A stretch of DNA of 64,000 bases from Haliotis cracherodii (GCF_022045235.1 NW_027266277.1:9610001-9674000), one strand, 5' to 3'. Shown: positions 4,946 through 15,141, numbered from the stretch's first letter. Notes: generated by a model not told the origin, from the sequence alone. Numbers and translations are program-made.

Positions 4946-5294
4946 CTGGAAACAGAGACAATATTTGTAGACATCAGGAATAACATGGAAGGAGATCTTC
5001 GAGCCAAGAGACATCTTATTGGAGCAACAGATTTGATTTTGAAGAGAATAATCTGTACATGCAGAAGTAGGTGATTACAGAGTTTATGAACCTCCAGTGA
5101 TGTCATCCTATTGTTCTCTAATCAGGTTAAATCTCATTAACAGGGATGTTATATAATATCCCAGGTATTTTATACTTTTGTCACAGGAATTTAACATGTG
5201 AGTGTTCCACACTTGAAGTTTATTTGCATTTGAACACAATGTAAACATGGAAATGTATGAAATAATGAAAAACCAACTGACAAATGTTTTCTGT

Positions 5295-5583
5295 ATACAT
5301 TATACCCTGTAGCTCGGCAGAAGTAGGTCTTTACACATTATCATACCCTGTAGCTCTGCAGAAGTAGGTCTTTATACATTATTACATCCTGCAGCTCTGC
5401 AGAAGTAGGGCTTTACACATTATTATACCCTGTAGCTCTGCAGAAGTAGGTCTTTACACATTATTACATCCTGTAGCTCTGCAGAAGTAGGCCTTTACAC
5501 ATCATTATACCCTATCGCTCAGCAGAAGCAGGTCTTTACACATTATCATATCCTGTAGCTTTGCAGAAGCAGGTCTTTACACA
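5295..5583. repeat. 41-42-bp minisatellite (about 7 copies)
   Basis: Unit CCCTGTAGCTCTGCAGAAGTAGGTCTTTACACATTATTATA. Confidence 0.9.
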
Positions 5584-6063
5584 GTTTCCATTGTAAATGT
5601 TGCAGGTTTTATTCAGTATGACACAAACTTGATGGGGGATTGTGTTTTGTTTGTAATTTGTGTGGCTATTTCTATTTAAAGGTTGTGCATATTGCAAAGT
5701 TTGGATGCTCTCTTTTGTTATTCATTGACAGGCCTGAGAAAGATACTCCTCTTGTGAGAAACAATGACAGCGGAGGACTGGTGAGGGGATAGTTACCACA
5801 CTACTTGTGCCCTACTCAAGCCTGGAGCTCAGCCAGGAACCCTTTTTTCTTCAGAAGTGGAGGACAAAAGAAGAGTCAGAGAAATTCAACTTAGATGTCA
5901 AACAGCTTTCAATCCAGCCACCTGGGACAGGGAGAGCCACACAAGCCAGCAAAGCAAGACTTGTTCCAAGGACCTTCACAACAATATGTTTCTGTAACCC
6001 AACTAGACCTAGTTGTAGGCTATAGGAGGATGGGATCTAACCCGTAACAAAATATTGGATGGT

Positions 6064-6180
6064 AAGACTTCTGCCTGTATCCCCCCCCCCCCTCCCTCAA
6101 AAATATATATAACTAAAAGGATTGAGCACCAATGCTTACATATGTAACTTTTTTATAGGGGGGATACGGGCGGAAGTCTT
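6064..6180. mobile_element. Short inverted-repeat element (MITE-like remnant)
   Basis: AAGACTTCTGCCTGTATCCCCC ... GGGGGATACGGGCGGAAGTCTT imperfect inverted repeat. Confidence 0.5.
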
Positions 6181-6284
6181 TCCATAGGAAGTGGTGAAAC
6201 AGTATCTCAAAGTCTTGATGAACAAGATGTCCATTGTATCTACAAGCGGTATTATCAGCATGATGAAGTATTATTGTCCTTTGC

Positions 6285-6435
6285 TAATAATAATAATAAG
6301 TGCATTTATAATGTGCCAGATTCCATTCACTAAGTGAATGCTCATAGCGCTACACTATTATTACCCCGGTCAATGGATCAGTGAGCACTCGATTTTCATT
6401 CTCATCTCCCTGGGCAGTATACAACCCAAGCTGCT
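6285..6435 (-). mobile_element. SINE 3' fragment with (AAT)n tail, Deu/Nin-domain-like
   Basis: Similar to 55675-55870; contains CTCCCTGGGxAGTATxCAACxCAAGCTGC, which resembles the Deu/Nin core as recalled from memory. Confidence 0.55.
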
Positions 6436-6953
6436 GTCATCAGAAAATTTCATAGATATGTCAGTCTCAACACATTTGTCACATATCTAAAAATCACAAA
6501 TGCCATGGTTGGGTTCTCCCACCATCCAATGCTTGCTACCCCAGTGGTAAAATAGATTTGTCAGACACCTCATGAGAATATAAGACATAAATATGAATAA
6601 AAATACTTTCATTGTATTTCATAGGCTTTAATAGCCACAAAGAAATACAGGTGTAATGTATTACAACATCATGTTACATCATTTGGCACTTTGGAACCGA
6701 TTATTAGAGTCAACCCAAATTCTGTACTTGTCTTATGATCAATTTCCACTGAACACATAATTTCGGCTCATTCTACAGAAGACGGCAGAATAGTCTCTTG
6801 TTTTAATGAAAAGAATTTTTATTACTATTACATTATAATTCATGACTAAATGTATATATACAGATACAAATGTCCATTATCTTTATTTTGTTATCTCTTC
6901 TAATATGTCTATGTTATCTGAAATATGATCTTCATCAAGATATAACAGTGACA

Positions 6954-9682
6954 TCAGGGTTGTGTACCAAACACTGTCTTTGCAGTTGCTGTTAGGTATA
7001 CTGTTGGGTAAGCTGTTGGGTAAGCTGTTGGGTGAGCTGTTGGGTAAGCTGTTGGGTATACTGTTGGGTGAGCTGTTGGGTCAGCTGTTGGGTATACTGT
7101 TGGGTAAGCTGTTGGGTAAGCTGTTGGGTATACTGTTGGGTATACTGTTGGGTATACTGTTGGGTAAGCTGTTGGGTAAGCTGTTGGGTGAGCTGTTGGG
7201 TAAGCTGTTGGGTATACTGTTGGGTGAGCTGTTGGGTGAGCTATTGGGTATAATGTTGGGTAAGCTGTTGGGTATACTGTTGGGTAAGCTGTTGGGTATA
7301 CTGTTGTGTAAGCTGTTGGGTAAGCTGTTGGGTATACTGTTGGGTATACTGTTGGGTATACTGTTGGGTAAGCTGTTGGGTAAGCTGTTGGGTGAGCTGT
7401 TGGGTAAGCTGTTGGGTATACTGTTGGGTGAGCTGTTGGGTGAGCTATTGGGTATAATGTTGGGTAAGCTGTTGAGTAAGCTGTTGGGTAAGCTGTTGGG
7501 TATACTGTTGGGTAAGCTGTTGGGTGAACTGTTGGGTGAACTGTTGGGTAAGCTGTTGGGTATACTGTTGGGTGAGCTGTTGGGTAAGCTGTTGGGTATA
7601 CTGTTGGGTAAGCTGTTGGGTAAGCTGTTGGGTGAGCTGTTGGGTAAGCTGTTGGGTATACTGTTGGGTGAGCTGTTGGGTGAGCTATTGGGTATAATGT
7701 TGGGTAAGCTGTTGAGTAAGCTGTTGGGTAAGCTGTTGGGTATACTGTTGGGTAAGCTGTTGGGTGAACTGTTGGGTGAACTGTTGGGTGAGCTGTTGGG
7801 TATACTGTTGGGTGAGCTGTTGGGTAAGCTGTTGGGTATACTGTTGGGTGAGCTGTTGGGTAAGCTGTTGGGTAGGCTGTTGGGTAAGCTGTTGGGTATA
7901 CTGTTGGGTAAGCTGTTGGGTAAGCTGTTGGGTATACTGTTGGGTAAGCTGTTGGGTGAACTGTTGGGTGAGCTGTTGGGTAAGCTGTTGGGTATACTGT
8001 TGGGTAAGCTGTTGGGTAAGCTGTTGGGTGAGCTGTTGGGTAAGCTGTTGGGTGAGCTGTTGGGTATACTGTTGGGTGAGCTGTTCGGTCAGCTGTTGTG
8101 TAAGCTGTTGGGTAAGCTGTTTGGTAAACTGTTGGGTAAGCTGTTGGGTGAACTGTTGGGTAAGCTGTTGGGTGAGCTGTTGGGTGAGCTATTGGGTATA
8201 ATGTTGTGTAAGCTGTTAAGTAAGCTGTTGGGTAAGCTGTTGGGTGAACTGTTGGGTGAACTGTTGGGAAAACTGTTGGGTAAGCTGTTGGGTGAGCTGT
8301 TGGGTAAGCTGTTGGGTATACTGTTGGGTGAGCTGTTGGGTAAGCTGTTGGGTGAGCTGTTGGGTAAGCTGTTGGGTATACTGTTGGATGAGCTGTTGGG
8401 TATACTGTTGGGTATACTGTTGGGTATGCTGTTGGGTAAGCTGTTGGGTATACTGTTGGGTAAGCTGTTGGGTAAGCTGTTGGGTGAGCTGTTTGGTATA
8501 CTGTTGGGTAAGCTGTTGGGTATGCTGTTGGGTAAGCTGTTGGGTGAGCTGTTGGGTAAGCTGTTGGGTATACTATTGGGTAAGCTGTTGGGTATACTGT
8601 TGGGTAAGCTGTTGGGTAAGCTGTTGGGTGAGCTTTTGGGTAAGCTGTTTGGTATACTGTTGGGTAAGCTGTTGGGTATACTGTTGGGTAAGCTGTTTGG
8701 TATACTGTTGGGTAAGCTGTTGGGTATGCTGTTGGGTAAGCTGTTGGGTGAGCTGTTGGGTAAGCTGTTGGGTATACTATTGGGTAAGCTGTTGGGTATA
8801 CTGTTGTGTAAGCTGCTGTGTAAGCTGTTGGGTATACTGTTGGGTATACTGTTGTGTAAGCTGTTGGGTATACTGTTGGGTATACTGTTGTGTAAGCTGT
8901 TGAGTGAGCTGTTCGGTGAGCTGTTGTGTAAGCTGTTGTGTAAGCTGTTGTGTAAGCTGTTGGGTATACTGTTGGGTAAGCTGTTGGGTAAGCTGTTGGG
9001 TATACTGTTGGGTATACCGTTGTGTAAGCTGTTGGGTAAGCTGTTGGGTATGCTGTTGGGTAAGCTGTTGGGTATACTGTTGGGTATACTGTTGTGTAAG
9101 CTGTTGTGTAAGCTGTTGGGTATACTGTTGTGTAAGCTGTTGGGTATACTGTTGGGTATACTGTTGTGTAAGCTGTTGGGTATACTGTTGGGTATACTGT
9201 TGTGTAAGCTGTTGTGTAAGCTGTTGGGTATACTGTTGGGTATACTGTTGTGTAAGCTGTTGAGTGAGCTGTTCGGTGAGCTGTTGTGTAAGCTGTTGTG
9301 TAAGCTGTTGTGTAAGCTGTTGAGTATACTGTTGTGTAAGCTGTTGTGTAAGCTGTTGGGTATACTGTTGGGTAAGCTGTTGGGTAAGTTGTTGGGTATA
9401 CTGTTGTGTAAGCTGTTGTGTAAGCTGTTGGGTATACTGTTGGGTATACTGTTGTGTAAGCTGTTGGGTATACTGTTGTGTAAGCTGTTGTGTAAGCTGT
9501 TGGGTATACTGTTGGGTATACTGTTGGGTAAGCTGTTGGGTAAGCTGTTGGGTAAGCTGTTGGGTAAGCTGTTGAGTGAGCTGTTGGGTATACTGTTGTG
9601 TAAGCTGTTGAGTAAGCTGTTGGGTAAGCTGTTGGGTATGTTACTGTTTCTTCCATGAATGCCAGATATCCACCAGGATGAT
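6954..9682 (-). CDS. Candidate exon 2 of a nested secreted P-T-[A/V]-[Y/H] repeat protein (923 aa with the 10073-10115 exon)
   Basis: CAG acceptor at 9685-9683 is phase 1 and in frame with the 900-aa ORF; about 220 12-bp units with no frameshift or stop; non-repetitive N- and C-termini; AATAAA at 6887-6882 after the stop. Confidence 0.45.
6990..9640. repeat. 12-bp tandem array CTGTTGGGT(AAG/ATA/GAG), about 220 units, with higher-order blocks
   Basis: Direct periodicity; unit length is invariant across the array. Confidence 0.97.
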
Positions 9683-10160: not shown

Positions 10161-11830
10161 CAAATGTTCAGCTTCACTACTAACTACAGTCGTGCCTCGT
10201 TTACACGGACACTTGCGTCATTTCACAATTTGTCCGTATAAACGAATTTCCGTATAACTGAAACCAGCTTCTTACTGGAAGAGTTACTTCCCTTCAATTA
10301 TGGAACTCATGACAGATGACAGAACAATCAGATACATCCACTCAATCTTTATTCATACACGTTTCAAAAAGTCTGTCATGGAAGTTTGAACTTTACCACA
10401 TTTTGAGGTTTGAATTTTAATCAATAATGTGTCACTTGGTTAATTGACTTCTCACGAATCAAAGGATTACCACCAGCGGAAGTGTATTGTCCGTATAAGT
10501 GAGACAATTTTGTGTGCATTTTAGTGTTTTGTGTATGAAAATGACCGATCGGTTCCGGAAACTGAATTTCCGTATATACGGTAAATTTATATAGTAATTA
10601 TTTCGTTTTGAATGAAAATCGTCCGGGAACAGAGGTTTCCGGATATCTGAAGTCCGTATAAGCGGGGCACGTCTGTACAAATGTTCAGCTTCACTACTAC
10701 CTACAAATGTTCAGCTTCACTACTAACTACAAATGTTCACCTTCACTACTGACTACAAATGTTCAGCTTCACTACTAACTACAAATGTTCAGCTTCACTA
10801 CTAACTACAAATGTTCAGCTTCACTACAGACTACAAATGTTCAGCTTCACTACTAACTACAAATGTTCACCTTCACTGCTAACTACAAATGTTCACCTTC
10901 ACTACTAACTACAAATGTTCACCTTCACTACTGACTACAAATGTTCACCTTCTCTACTAACTAAAACTGTTCTCCTTCACTACTGACTAAAAATGTTCAC
11001 CTTCACTACTGACTACAAATGTTCACCTTCACTACTGACTACAAATGTTCACCTTCACTACTAACTACAAATGTTCAGCTTCACTACTAACTACAAATGT
11101 TCACCTTCACTACTAACTACAAATGTTCACCTTCACTACTAACTACAAATGTTCACCTTCACTACTGACTACAAATGTTCAGCTTCACTACTAACTAAAA
11201 CTGTTCTCCTTCACTACTGACTAAAAATGTTCACCTTCACTACTGACTACAAATGTTCACCTTCACTACTGACTACAAATGTTCACCTTCAATACTAACT
11301 ACAAATGTTCAGCTTCACTACTAACTACAAATGTTCACCTTCACTACTAACTACAAATGTTCACCTTCACTACTAACTACAAATGTTCACCTTCACTACT
11401 GACTACAAATGTTCACCTTCACTACTAACTACAAATGTTCACCTTCACTACTAACTACAAATGTTCAGCTTCACTACTGACTACAAATGTTCAGCTTCAC
11501 TACTAACTACAAATGTTCAGCTTCACTACTGACTACAAATGTTCACCTTCACTACTAACTACAAATGTTCAGCTTCACTACTAACTACAAATGTTCAGCT
11601 TCACTACTAACTACAAATGTTCACCTTCACTACTAACTACAAATGTTCAGCTTCACTACTAACTACAAATGTTCACCTTCACTACTAACTACAAATGTTC
11701 ACCTTCACTACTAACTACAAATGTTCACCTTCACTACTAACTACAAATGTTCACCTTCACTACTACCTACAAATGTTCAGCTTCACTACTAACTACAAAT
11801 GTTCACCTTCACTACTAACTACAAATGTTC
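10161..11830. repeat. 26-bp minisatellite CAAATGTTCACCTTCACTACTAACTA, interrupted after unit 1 by a MITE
   Basis: Direct periodicity. Confidence 0.95.
10187..10675. mobile_element. Tc1/mariner-pogo-type MITE
   Basis: TA|CAGTCGTGCCTCGTTTACACGGAC ... GTCCGTATAAGCGGGGCACGTCTG|TA: imperfect TIRs and TA duplication. Confidence 0.85.
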
Positions 11831-12047
11831 TGAACAAAGATGACCGTGTGATGGCCATAAATACATTTTCAATATGGACGATATGGTGACCAAGATTGAC
11901 AACAGGCCATGACATAAGCTCACATGACTTTCAGTCAGGTGAGCTAAAGGCTTAAACATAATGACCCAGATTAATGACCATATTTGCATGACTCCTGGAA
12001 CATAGACTCGTGGTTTTGACGGAGGATTAAGTTAGAACATTCCTTAC

Positions 12048-12859: not shown

Positions 12860-13061
12860 GGTTTGTTTAAACGGAACACTCAGTAATATTCAAGCTATTT
12901 GACAGAGGTCTGCCACAAATTGAACATGGGGCTGACAATCCAGTGATTGACATCATGAGCATCGATATACGGAACTGGGATACAATGACATGCATCAACT
13001 AAGTCAGTGAGCCTGATCACCCGTGTACCGTTAGTCGCCTCTTACGAGTATGAGTTCCTGG
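12860..13061 (-). mobile_element. SINE family 1, left part; the remainder lies at 15065-15102
   Basis: Matches 2617-2946 and 35990-36225; the sequence resumes as GAGACCAATTCTAACCCG after the 2-kb insertion. Confidence 0.75.
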
Positions 13062-13451
13062 CACAGGAACTCGTTATTGGTCAGTAAATAAAAATATATA
13101 CCCCCTATATGTAAGTAGAGAAAAGGAGCGTCACTCGCCATCTTGCCGGTTTGTTTACATTCGATATCCACGGCGATTGTTTTATTATAAGCTTATTGAC
13201 ACGCGCATTTCTGGCCGTAGATTGATCGATAATACATTTCTACACATGTACAACACATCTACATTCGAACAATGTCCCTTACTTACCGAAATATCGACAG
13301 TTTATTTCGTAACCTGGGAATATGTTACCAACCCCGAGCGGAAGTAAATTTCAAACGCGGTCAGAATCGAGCGAGCCACCTGATTGGCTGACCTACTTAT
13401 ATCAAGTCAGCGTGAAAACAACAACACATGTGCAACCAACGTGGGTTCAAA

Positions 13452-13548
13452 ATGATAGCTTTGACTGAAGAACAAGTGTTTGCATGGAATTTGATCAAAG
13501 ATGGACACAACACTCTAATCTGGCGAGGCTGGCACAGGAAAAACGGTT
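13452..13548 (+). pseudogene. PIF1-like SF1B helicase N-terminal fragment (frameshifted)
   Basis: MIALTEEQVFAWNLIKDGHNTLI-(frameshift)-GEAGTGKTV: Q motif plus Walker A in the PIF1/RecD arrangement. Confidence 0.7.
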
Positions 13549-13949
13549 CAAGGAAATTACGGAGAGACTGAGGAGAAATGAAATCTACAGTTCTGACATG
13601 TTACTGTTGACTTAAAACAATTCAAAGATAATACTTTCAAACAGTTAGCAGAGTATGCAATGGGTTCCTTCTAAAAATTTTGCTGAAGAACAAGATTTTC
13701 TTTCTCATCTGATATTCTGTTAGGAGATATGCCCTGACAGTATCTTGTCATATTCAGTGTCGAAAAGAATGCGTTATGTTTTTTTTAGTCGAAATGTATA
13801 TACTGAATACCAAAAGTGTCATTTATTACTGTACCACTGACGGAAAGATGTACATGCCCATCAGTAGAAAATCTCACTTGTAAATATATCATGTTCCCAT
13901 TACAGGATAATCCTGTCTGCCTTCCAACAGTTATAGAGTCTTTAGTTTG

Positions 13950-14230
13950 CTACAGTACAAAATAGTCTTTTGGAATGTTATCAGATATTGCAGCAAATTC
14001 AATGTTTTGTGTCTGTTCTGATCTCACATTGATGCCACGGTAAACCGTGATGTTTTTAATCCAATCACCAGGTTTTTGGAGCCTGGTTGTGGTGATATTT
14101 TGGAAAAGCATTTTTTTAATATTTTCTGACAAACACTTTTGATCTGTGACCAAAGTTGTCACAAAATTTCTGGAAAATCTCTTCAACTGGTATAGTACTT
14201 TTGCTGTCTTCAACATACTTTTCATGTAAC
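13950..14230 (-). pseudogene. RFX-like winged-helix DNA-binding domain exon (frameshifted)
   Basis: TTCTTATAG acceptor, then LHEKYVEDSKSTIPVEEIFQKFCDNF..(fs)..KMLFQNITTTRLQKPGDWIKNITVYRGI; resembles the RFX pattern WLxxxY...FPxxxTRRLGxxG...YxGI. Confidence 0.5.
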
Positions 14231-14395
14231 CTATAAGAATGTTTCAAGAACTTTACATAACTGAAAATTGAATTCTTGTAACATCGCAATATAACTGCCA
14301 TTGGTAAAAATTCAGAATTTCATATATTATAATGGCAAATCATGATATTTGGGTGTGTTTGTGATATTCATATTATCATGTAATGTTGTAATTTA

Positions 14396-14738
14396 CCGTA
14401 TTCAACGTAATAAGCGCCCAGGTCGCTCTCAAAATTAGAAATAGGGGGCTCTATTAGAATGGTATTTTGGTGAGGAAAAAACAGTTGAAAGATAAATTTC
14501 GTGGTTTATGCTGACAGCCTGAAATGTTTATATACGACAGATATATTTTTCCAGAATTTAATTGCCCATAATTAAGGGTGCATATAACACACGAGTGTGT
14601 ATTATACACAAATAAATAAGTCTTGTGCACATTGATCAATTGGAAGGGGTGCTAATTGGGATTGTTCACAAGCCAATATATTAATAAATATCGCCGTGGG
14701 CGCTTATTAGAGCGGGGGGCTTATTACGTCGAATACGG
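14396..14738. mobile_element. pogo/Tigger-type MITE nested in the TIR element
   Basis: TA|CCGTATTCAACGTAATAAGC ... GCTTATTACGTCGAATACGG|TA. Confidence 0.85.
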
Positions 14739-15141
14739 TACTTATTATTCTCAAATAGATTTATTACTTTTGCATTCATGATAAATATTAACTTGAAATG
14801 TTCACTTTATTCATTTTCAATCTGCATGACCAGTATTCATAATGTCATCAGGCACAGGCAATATACATGAAAATGTGCCTATTATATTAATATAGTGATG
14901 TATAGTTTAAAATTCACCAGCTAATAATGGACTAGCTTTAGATGACAAGTATATTATAAAATGAAAAACATATTCATAATAAATATTTACCATTTGAAGA
15001 AATTATCTGAAGTCATTTTTTAGATTCTGCTGTCACTCCAGATAACTCCAATAACGAGTTCCTGGTTCCTTGGAGACCAATTCTAACCCGAATCTTTAAG
15101 GGTGGATAATTAGTATCCAGGGTTAAATGAAGATAGCTTAC

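Follow-up and report, generated by a model that had tools for sequence, protein, structure and literature searches.

A deleted P-superfamily transposon copy in Haliotis cracherodii and its two-gene relatives with an apparently split transposase and a PIF1 helicase

The window, that is, the whole 64,000-nucleotide stretch of Haliotis cracherodii DNA that was analysed, contains an insert of 2,003 bp at positions 13062-15064, flanked by a host repeat that we take to be a SINE. The initial annotation had described the insert as splitting this repeat, and this was borne out when the element was removed and the flanks were rejoined: 10 of 117 BLAST matches to other copies of the host repeat cross the junction. 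The ends carry a perfect inverted repeat of 17 nt (13064-13080 and 15048-15064, 100% complementary), which has only two matches in the whole window at up to 3 mismatches (0.12 expected) and 219 exact matches genome-wide (genome G000), the reversed control giving none. The repeat is exact, as annotated, but the 17 nt represent the surviving right arm, since the terminal inverted repeat (TIR) of the window's family (family A) is about 330 bp long, begins with CACAGG and has arms 94-97% identical in the sister copies L004 and L005. CA..TG ends, which are the rule for TIRs of the P superfamily, had also been proposed; they hold for family A, whose termini are CAC..GTG (CACAGG..CCTGTG in the full form), and not for the window copy, whose terminal TG is gone. 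There, interior sequence runs directly into the final 19 nt of the right arm; comparison with L004 places the losses at this end at the terminal TG, about 311 nt of TIR and about 48 nt of interior. A deletion of the right arm between two CCAAT microhomologies was ruled out by comparison with sister copies. The CCAAT and CGGAAG motifs reported ahead of the PIF1 start are present, and both are situated inside the TIR; a reverse CCAAT box was found in four of five aligned TIR families and CGGAAG in three of the five, and together they form a predicted inward promoter that would drive both convergent genes. The nested MITE, presumably Tc1/mariner-like, is missing from the sister copies L003, L004 and L005, has other copies in L154 and L155 (about 90% identity), and is an insertion later than the element itself. 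Elsewhere in the window, a tandem array with a 26-bp period occupies 11000-11870, its copies being mostly 91-100% alike. The coordinates of the features are collected in Table 1.

Table 1. Features of the insert and its host site, in window coordinates
Feature	Position	Strand	Basis
Host repeat, left part	12863..13061 (start approximate)	.	Rejoined flanks align to other copies, 73-80% identity
Left target-site duplication, 8 bp, GTTCCTGG	13054..13061	+	Sequence; family duplication is 8 bp
Complete left TIR, 330 bp, starts CACAGG	13062..13391	+	Matches both ends of L004 and L005
CGGAAG (13339-13344) and reverse CCAAT box (13382-13387)	13339..13387	+	Near inner TIR end
PIF1 exon 1 remnant, start codon to just beyond Walker A, frameshifted	13452..13583	+	Alignment with 11 sister copies
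Transposase exon 2 remnant, RFX-like winged helix and next region, with frameshifts and stops	13584..14230	-	tblastn, fold
Transposase intron 1 (GT..AG), holds nested MITE	14231..14990	-	Sequence; counterpart in L022 spliced in run X1
Nested MITE, 343 bp, about 31-bp TIRs, TA duplication	14396..14738	.	Inverted repeat
Transposase exon 1, 26 nt, MTSDNFFK	14991..15016	-	Length and phase same as exon 1 of intact relative
Right TIR remnant, TIR positions 3-19	15048..15064	-	Comparison with L004
Right target-site duplication copy, GTTCCTTGG, 1-nt insertion	15065..15073	+	Sequence, comparison with L004
Host repeat, right part	15074..15105 (end approximate)	.	Rejoined-flank alignment

A target-site duplication (TSD) of 8-9 bp had been suggested for the insert, and 8 bp is the length that stood, within the 7-8 bp of the P superfamily, the right copy being 8 bp with a 1-nt insertion. 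Among 20 paired ends of family A, the TSD was exact at 8 bp in 11 and within one mismatch in 14, and the other six pairs, including the window copy, scored no TSD. A further set of 23 rows, reduced to 21 distinct pairs by removal of two duplicates, gave nine pairs exact at 8 bp and 12 within one mismatch; the pairs were drawn from the first 100 listed matches and from targeted searches, not from all 219. A TSD of 9 bp, AcademH- or MULE-like, was rejected, with none of the family A pairs exact at that length. In family B, the family of the intact relative L022 described below, an 8-bp TSD was present in all four examples examined, of six paired ends. With regard to the 17-nt staggered cleavage of P-superfamily ends, those keeping just 17-21 nt accounted for 8 of 134 end rows (seven distinct), a count biased by the 15-nt seed and by one targeted search, and a footprint search found no short two-ended excision footprint. 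No fixed sequence was evident among the listed TSDs. The sequence ctagta(c/t)aag(c/a)a surrounds two family A insertions (L004:425-436 and L144), and a string resembling it is located just downstream of the intact relative (L022:9454-9467); this sequence is possibly a repeat that serves as a favoured target. Abundant MITEs of 60-130 bp (L141-L152 and many of L165-L215) consist of the outer 50-60 bp or so of each family A TIR, and 8-bp TSDs flank many of them. The TIR 17-mer was also observed in two arrays, one at G000:C1:61478847-61481327 with 14 listed matches at roughly 60-bp multiples, and one at G000:C3:23459531-23479273 with five matches at a period of about 4.93 kb.

Within the insert, remnants of two convergent genes were identified. 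The PIF1-type start that had been read on the plus strand is real at 13452 according to the alignment of copies, the sister copy L009 matching PF05970 with an E-value of 9.6e-12, and it is frameshifted in the window copy. On the opposite strand, the exon 2 remnant matches residues of about 3-225 of the transposase encoded by the intact relative on contig C18 (tblastn, E 1.9e-27). The remark that no transposase was visible was thus not quite right, because the transposase gene begins, at its 5' end, with the RFX-like exon, and this exon with the sequence that follows corresponds to the N-terminal 225 residues or so. The RFX-like character of the exon scored below the cut-off by sequence (PF02257, E 0.023) and is backed by the fold (1DP7) and by a homologue, P0011, with a precomputed PF02257 assignment. 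The exon had also been described as spliced, in agreement with its 26-nt first exon and the acceptor of intron 1 at 14231/14230, which share length and phase with the intact relative. Pfam returned nothing significant for the window's own eight frames, and when homologues of the RFX exon and of the exon-4 ORF were sought among longer proteins, neither query gave a match. Used as queries, the PIF1 and RFX pieces both match one C18 locus with the same convergent layout. Family A itself had this pair of genes, as its copy L015, 91% identical to the window in the PIF1 part, retains PIF1 exon 2 and the start of a P-type helix-turn-helix (HTH). No intact autonomous family A copy was found among the genome matches. 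The span L001-L003 (G000:C1:12181034-12204584), tried as an autonomous copy, was rejected, its flanks lacking a TSD; its length of 23.5 kb is due solely to LTR and LINE elements nested in it, and the family A ends enclose a tandem repeat, an LTR-retrotransposon-like frame of 1,348 aa and a LINE-like element.

The intact relative, located at G000:C18:7004049-7011904 (L022:1549-9404), is 7,856 bp long and carries two convergent genes between 338-bp TIRs that are 99.4% identical, with CACAGG ends and an exact 8-bp TSD, GTCTCAGT. Its family comprises six paired ends, and identity to the C18 copy is 99% in the three short copies that were examined. Protein identity to the window's family is about 33% in the shared region, so the full architecture is that of a related family. 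Given its open frames and near-identical TIRs, the C18 copy is a candidate active invertebrate transposon. The suggestion that the insert derives by deletion from a larger TIR DNA transposon with several genes is supported, this two-gene element, which is no Helitron, being the counterpart. Of the observations that would have spoken against it, single-copy TIRs are contradicted by the multi-copy TIRs, and no Rep HUH domain was detected in the long copy.

Gene 1 of the relative consists of a 26-nt exon and a long exon that together encode 777 aa, and an H. cracherodii protein is identical to it. Pfam assigned it PF21787 (E 8e-14), and its structural model (pLDDT 82) matches the Drosophila P transposase 6P5A_A with an E-value of 2.1e-19 and a TM of 0.76. 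Of the P- or hAT-like ends first considered, only the P alternative holds, the next family for this model being Hermes, with an E-value of 3e-5 and a TM of 0.25. A single-sequence PDB search with the transposase gave no relevant match, and a profile of 24 transposase sequences had a single PDB match, 6p5a_A (E 3.6e-12), with the residues of the DDE triad and DxxH motif, D384, D475, D513xxH516 and E707, invariant in the rows covering each (24, 23, 23 and 19 of 24, respectively). The profile aligned to residues 320-410 of 6p5a_A, the stretch of the GTP-binding insertion domain; PF21788, the Pfam insertion domain, was reached in L061 with 25.0 bits against a cut-off of 24.8 and was not reported by Pfam in L022. 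At the N-terminus, the model matches the RFX DNA-binding domain 1DP7 (probability 1.00, TM by target 0.78, E 0.12) and also the RFX DNA-binding domain 8ZJR. Pfam found no THAP domain in the transposase, and an RFX-type winged helix is predicted from the model to stand in for it. We conclude that the window insert is almost certainly a P-superfamily derivative. The transposase profile stops about 34 positions past the stretch matching fly residue 562, right after the RNase H fold. According to the consulted part of PMC10824691, the fly P transposase goes on into a C-terminal domain (CTD) at residues 566-751.

Gene 2 of the relative is predicted to consist of four GT-AG phase-0 exons encoding an open protein of 1,089 aa, in which a PIF1 helicase (PF05970) leads, through an acidic linker, to a helical region and then to a PHD finger. 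The fusion of PIF1 to the helical region does not depend on the exon model alone, since both are in one frame in L094 and L137 and, save for one stop, in L061. The homologues of gene 2 formed 681 clusters; of 41 long proteins scanned among 150 listed, 23 had PIF1 domains and none a transposase domain. Helicase motifs were well preserved, with Walker A intact in 12/13, the DE of Walker B in 13/15 and the motif VI arginine in 19/19. The full-length homologue P0036 scored 190-205 bits against yeast and human PIF1, 72-112 bits against the other Pif1 structures listed and 34 bits against Helraiser. PHD matches were present in 39 of 87 alignment members. The helical region, modelled from 87 sequences (pLDDT 89), had as its best match among 48,161 chains residues 617-734 of 6P5A_B, with 118/118 positions aligned at Z 9.7 and an rmsd of 2.8; this was the sole row at Z of at least 8, the second row having Z 7.3. 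Its CTD identity had been predicted ahead of the structure search. The identity between the two is just 13%, and the structure-search tool cautions that a Z below about 13 may reflect a common helical-bundle arrangement. Foldseek with the helical domain gave no match at an E-value of 0.001 or better, and Pfam and PDB sequence searches revealed no link between this domain and the P CTD. Gene 2 also contains a conserved motif, [KR][IV]RY[VI][GA]G, which in our view resembles the P-type C-terminal motif. Judging from the models, the helical domain is very probably the displaced CTD of a P transposase. Because gene 1 ends after the RNase H fold and the CTD match lies in gene 2, the transposase appears to be split, with its tail fused to a helicase.

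This layout with PIF1 was also found in G000 at L031/L058 (9.4 kb, exact 8-bp TSD), L036, L034 and L041. Among the 80 metagenome loci fetched, sequence of 2 kb or more on the downstream side of the transposase was available for 12 (about eight distinct loci once near-copies are merged); PIF1 was on the opposite strand in all 12, a proportion that describes this lineage only, because the loci were retrieved with its own profile, and the CTD-like domain was present in 11 of them. Matches to the CTD profile numbered 15 in the 80 loci, all on the opposite strand, and in L066 the PIF1 match is situated upstream. At L031:1898-8043 and in L065, the two genes are not arranged tail to tail; the PIF1-CTD gene encloses the transposase gene, which is located between helicase exons and runs in the opposite direction. 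The sources named for related proteins include H. cracherodii, the bivalves Mytilus, Pecten and Argopecten, and the hemichordate Ptychodera. Viral contigs gave 32 pattern matches and no relatives, and Rfam nothing credible. The chances are about even that these elements represent an undescribed, widespread invertebrate P lineage with a two-subunit transposase, one subunit being the catalytic RFX-DDE protein and the other joining the transposase's own CTD to a PHD finger and to a PIF1 motor of cellular type that was captured.

Two-gene relatives without PIF1 were identified in G000 as well (L043:1048-9214, L051:1358-8676, L059, L060, L047 and L052). Their TSDs are 7 bp long (three of four exact) and their N-terminus differs; the convergent gene has a C2H2 finger exon ahead of a CTD-like ORF. 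HHalign related this ORF to the helical domain of gene 2 with a probability of 93% (E 3e-7), the local CTD profile scored weakly on the second ORFs (E 0.05-0.4), and a single-sequence PDB search with that of L043 gave no relevant match. One of these families may be recently active, as four of its copies have an open frame of 864 aa. In an unrooted tree, which took in 19 rows of unknown context and left out the spliced loci and L052, one long branch with an SH-aLRT of 100 parts the six PIF1-linked transposases from the four PIF1-less ones. The tree is unrooted because no canonical single-gene P element that could act as outgroup was found among 14 matches in G000. The split may predate the capture of PIF1, since the PIF1-less relatives carry an ORF related to the helical domain, and the unrooted tree gives no order of events.

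RNA-like data contribute to the description of the C18 element. Joints at GT..AG on the plus strand were present in four runs, with intron 1 spliced in one of the four. In three of the four runs, from two studies, the RFX exon was spliced past the whole catalytic region (L022:2351-2517 to 5065-8022), giving a multi-exon transcript that is antisense to gene 2 and has a predicted product of 75 aa, a stub. A possible role for this transcript, by analogy, would be self-repression, and it recalls the splicing control of the fly P element described in the consulted part of PMC7776569. No joints were detected at the predicted gene-2 introns in the four runs, over the parts of L022 with contig cover.

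In the reading that we prefer, to which we assign a probability of roughly 0.6, the insert is a non-autonomous P derivative whose relatives encode a two-subunit transposase with their two genes, the CTD tethering PIF1 to the transposon ends. The RFX domain would bind sites within the 330-bp TIRs, gene 1 would cut and join as the P transposase does, and gene 2 would dock via its CTD. In the strand-transfer complex of the P transposase, the transferred strand is looped out at the CTD, as reported in the consulted part of PMC7776569; PIF1 could act on this single-stranded DNA, unwinding re-paired ends and dislodging the complex so that the host fills the gaps, while the PHD finger could read the target chromatin. 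That the two gene products act together is probable, and the action of the helicase on the ends at the transpososome is a tentative proposal, somewhat below even odds. The helicase is not chemically required, since the P transposase of the fly, like the PIF1-less relatives (L043, L051), works without one.

An alternative retains the same split P-type element and places the helicase mainly at the donor site, in long-tract gap repair from the sister chromatid, by which an 8-12-kb element with hairpin-prone TIRs would be copied back and its copy number raised. The score of the element helicase against yeast and human PIF1 (190-205 bits) is consistent with such a role, as is the window copy, which, with one full end and one end of 17-19 nt, resembles the outcome of gap repair that was aborted. 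In the P{wa} assay, which follows the repair of gaps left by P excision, synthesis is promoted by Drosophila PIF1, although the effect is limited to flies without POL32 (bioRxiv 10.1101/554550). Against it, deleted copies dominate the family, and a helicase tethered by the CTD would be expected to depart from the donor with the excised element, and we regard this alternative as unlikely. Less likely still is that gene 2 serves chiefly in targeting, with the PHD finger reading histone marks, PIF1 opening forks, R-loops or G4 DNA at the target, and the CTD holding on to the target DNA. In the consulted parts of PMC10824691 and PMC7776569, the CTD of the fly protein is called a basic domain that binds target DNA, the PHD matches in 39 of 87 members would fit, and so would the C2H2 finger exon that PIF1-less relatives have instead upstream of the CTD-like ORF; however, the listed TSDs lack an obvious fixed sequence. 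It is very improbable that gene 2 represents captured cargo, or else an accessory gene independent of the rest, with a helical domain that resembles the CTD by chance: the Z of 9.7 is under the tool's caution level for helical bundles and no Pfam or PDB sequence match ties the domain to the P CTD, but the match ranks first of 48,161, aligns over the whole domain and accompanies a transposase without exactly that domain, and the linkage is kept across the lineage and in the PIF1-less relatives (93%, E 3e-7). Finally, a Helitron or Helentron helicase fragment caught in an unrelated MITE, brought to mind by PIF1-family helicases as a Helitron hallmark (part of PMC8788227), is hardly credible against the absence of a Rep domain from the four long ORFs of the intact element (Pfam), the 34 bits against Helraiser compared with 190-205 against cellular PIF1, the TIR and 8-bp TSD structure, and the conserved linkage to a DDE transposase.

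If the preferred reading, a two-subunit P transposase with a tethered helicase, is correct, these elements would be eukaryotic cut-and-paste transposons that encode an ATP-driven helicase as one of their own subunits, and they would offer a natural system in which to examine the function of the P CTD and the take-down of the P transpososome. To our knowledge, no member of the superfamily other than the P element has a solved structure, and what its CTD does and how the strand-transfer complex is disassembled are poorly understood; both could be tested by two-plasmid complementation, because the natural split places the CTD on the helicase-fused gene. THAP would be shown to be replaceable by an RFX winged helix, and, among the genes annotated as 'PIF1-like' in molluscs and hemichordates, some may belong to P transposons and not be host or Helitron helicases. 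PIF1 would also join the helicases used by TIR transposons, which are RecQ in the described cases for which we consulted part of the source.

None of the papers searched was found to describe a P element that carries PIF1 or RFX or has its CTD split off; Repbase or Dfam may hold such families. When compared to the Drosophila P element and THAP9 (6P5A, 6PE2), the elements share the HTH, the split RNase H with its insertion domain, the DDE triad, the DxxH motif, the CTD-like fold, TIRs, an 8-bp TSD and internally deleted derivatives. In contrast to both, which have THAP, they have a predicted RFX-type winged helix. The CTD-like domain, part of the same polypeptide in the single-gene P element, is here encoded by a second, convergent gene together with PIF1 and PHD, and the TIRs of about 330 bp and lengths of 7.9-9.4 kb differ from the 31-bp TIRs and 2.9 kb of the P element. 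Galileo and 1360/Hoppel have a P-superfamily transposase in common with these elements, and Galileo has long TIRs too, but they differ in their 7-bp TSD and intronless genes, and no helicase gene is mentioned in the consulted parts of PMC3573991 and PMC3698922. The 8-bp TSD is common to the P and hAT superfamilies, and the hAT-type fold fails here (Hermes, TM 0.25). Helitron RepHel proteins share a PIF1-family helicase, whereas the element described here has TIRs and TSDs and no HUH Rep. Harbinger and the RAG1/RAG2-type Transib combine a catalytic subunit with a second element-encoded subunit; in contrast to these, the second subunit here appears to hold the transposase's own domain together with an ATP-driven motor. 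AcademH elements encode a DDE transposase and a RecQ helicase, in some cases on the complementary strand; the present helicase is PIF1 (PF05970), and the AcademH transposase is of a superfamily unrelated to P. KolobokH similarly pairs a DDE transposase with a helicase, sometimes on the complementary strand, but the helicase is RecQ, the transposase belongs to an unrelated superfamily, and the consulted part of PMC9587614 mentions no split transposase domain. By its catalytic domain and TSD, the element is a member of the P superfamily that stands outside the canonical THAP family.
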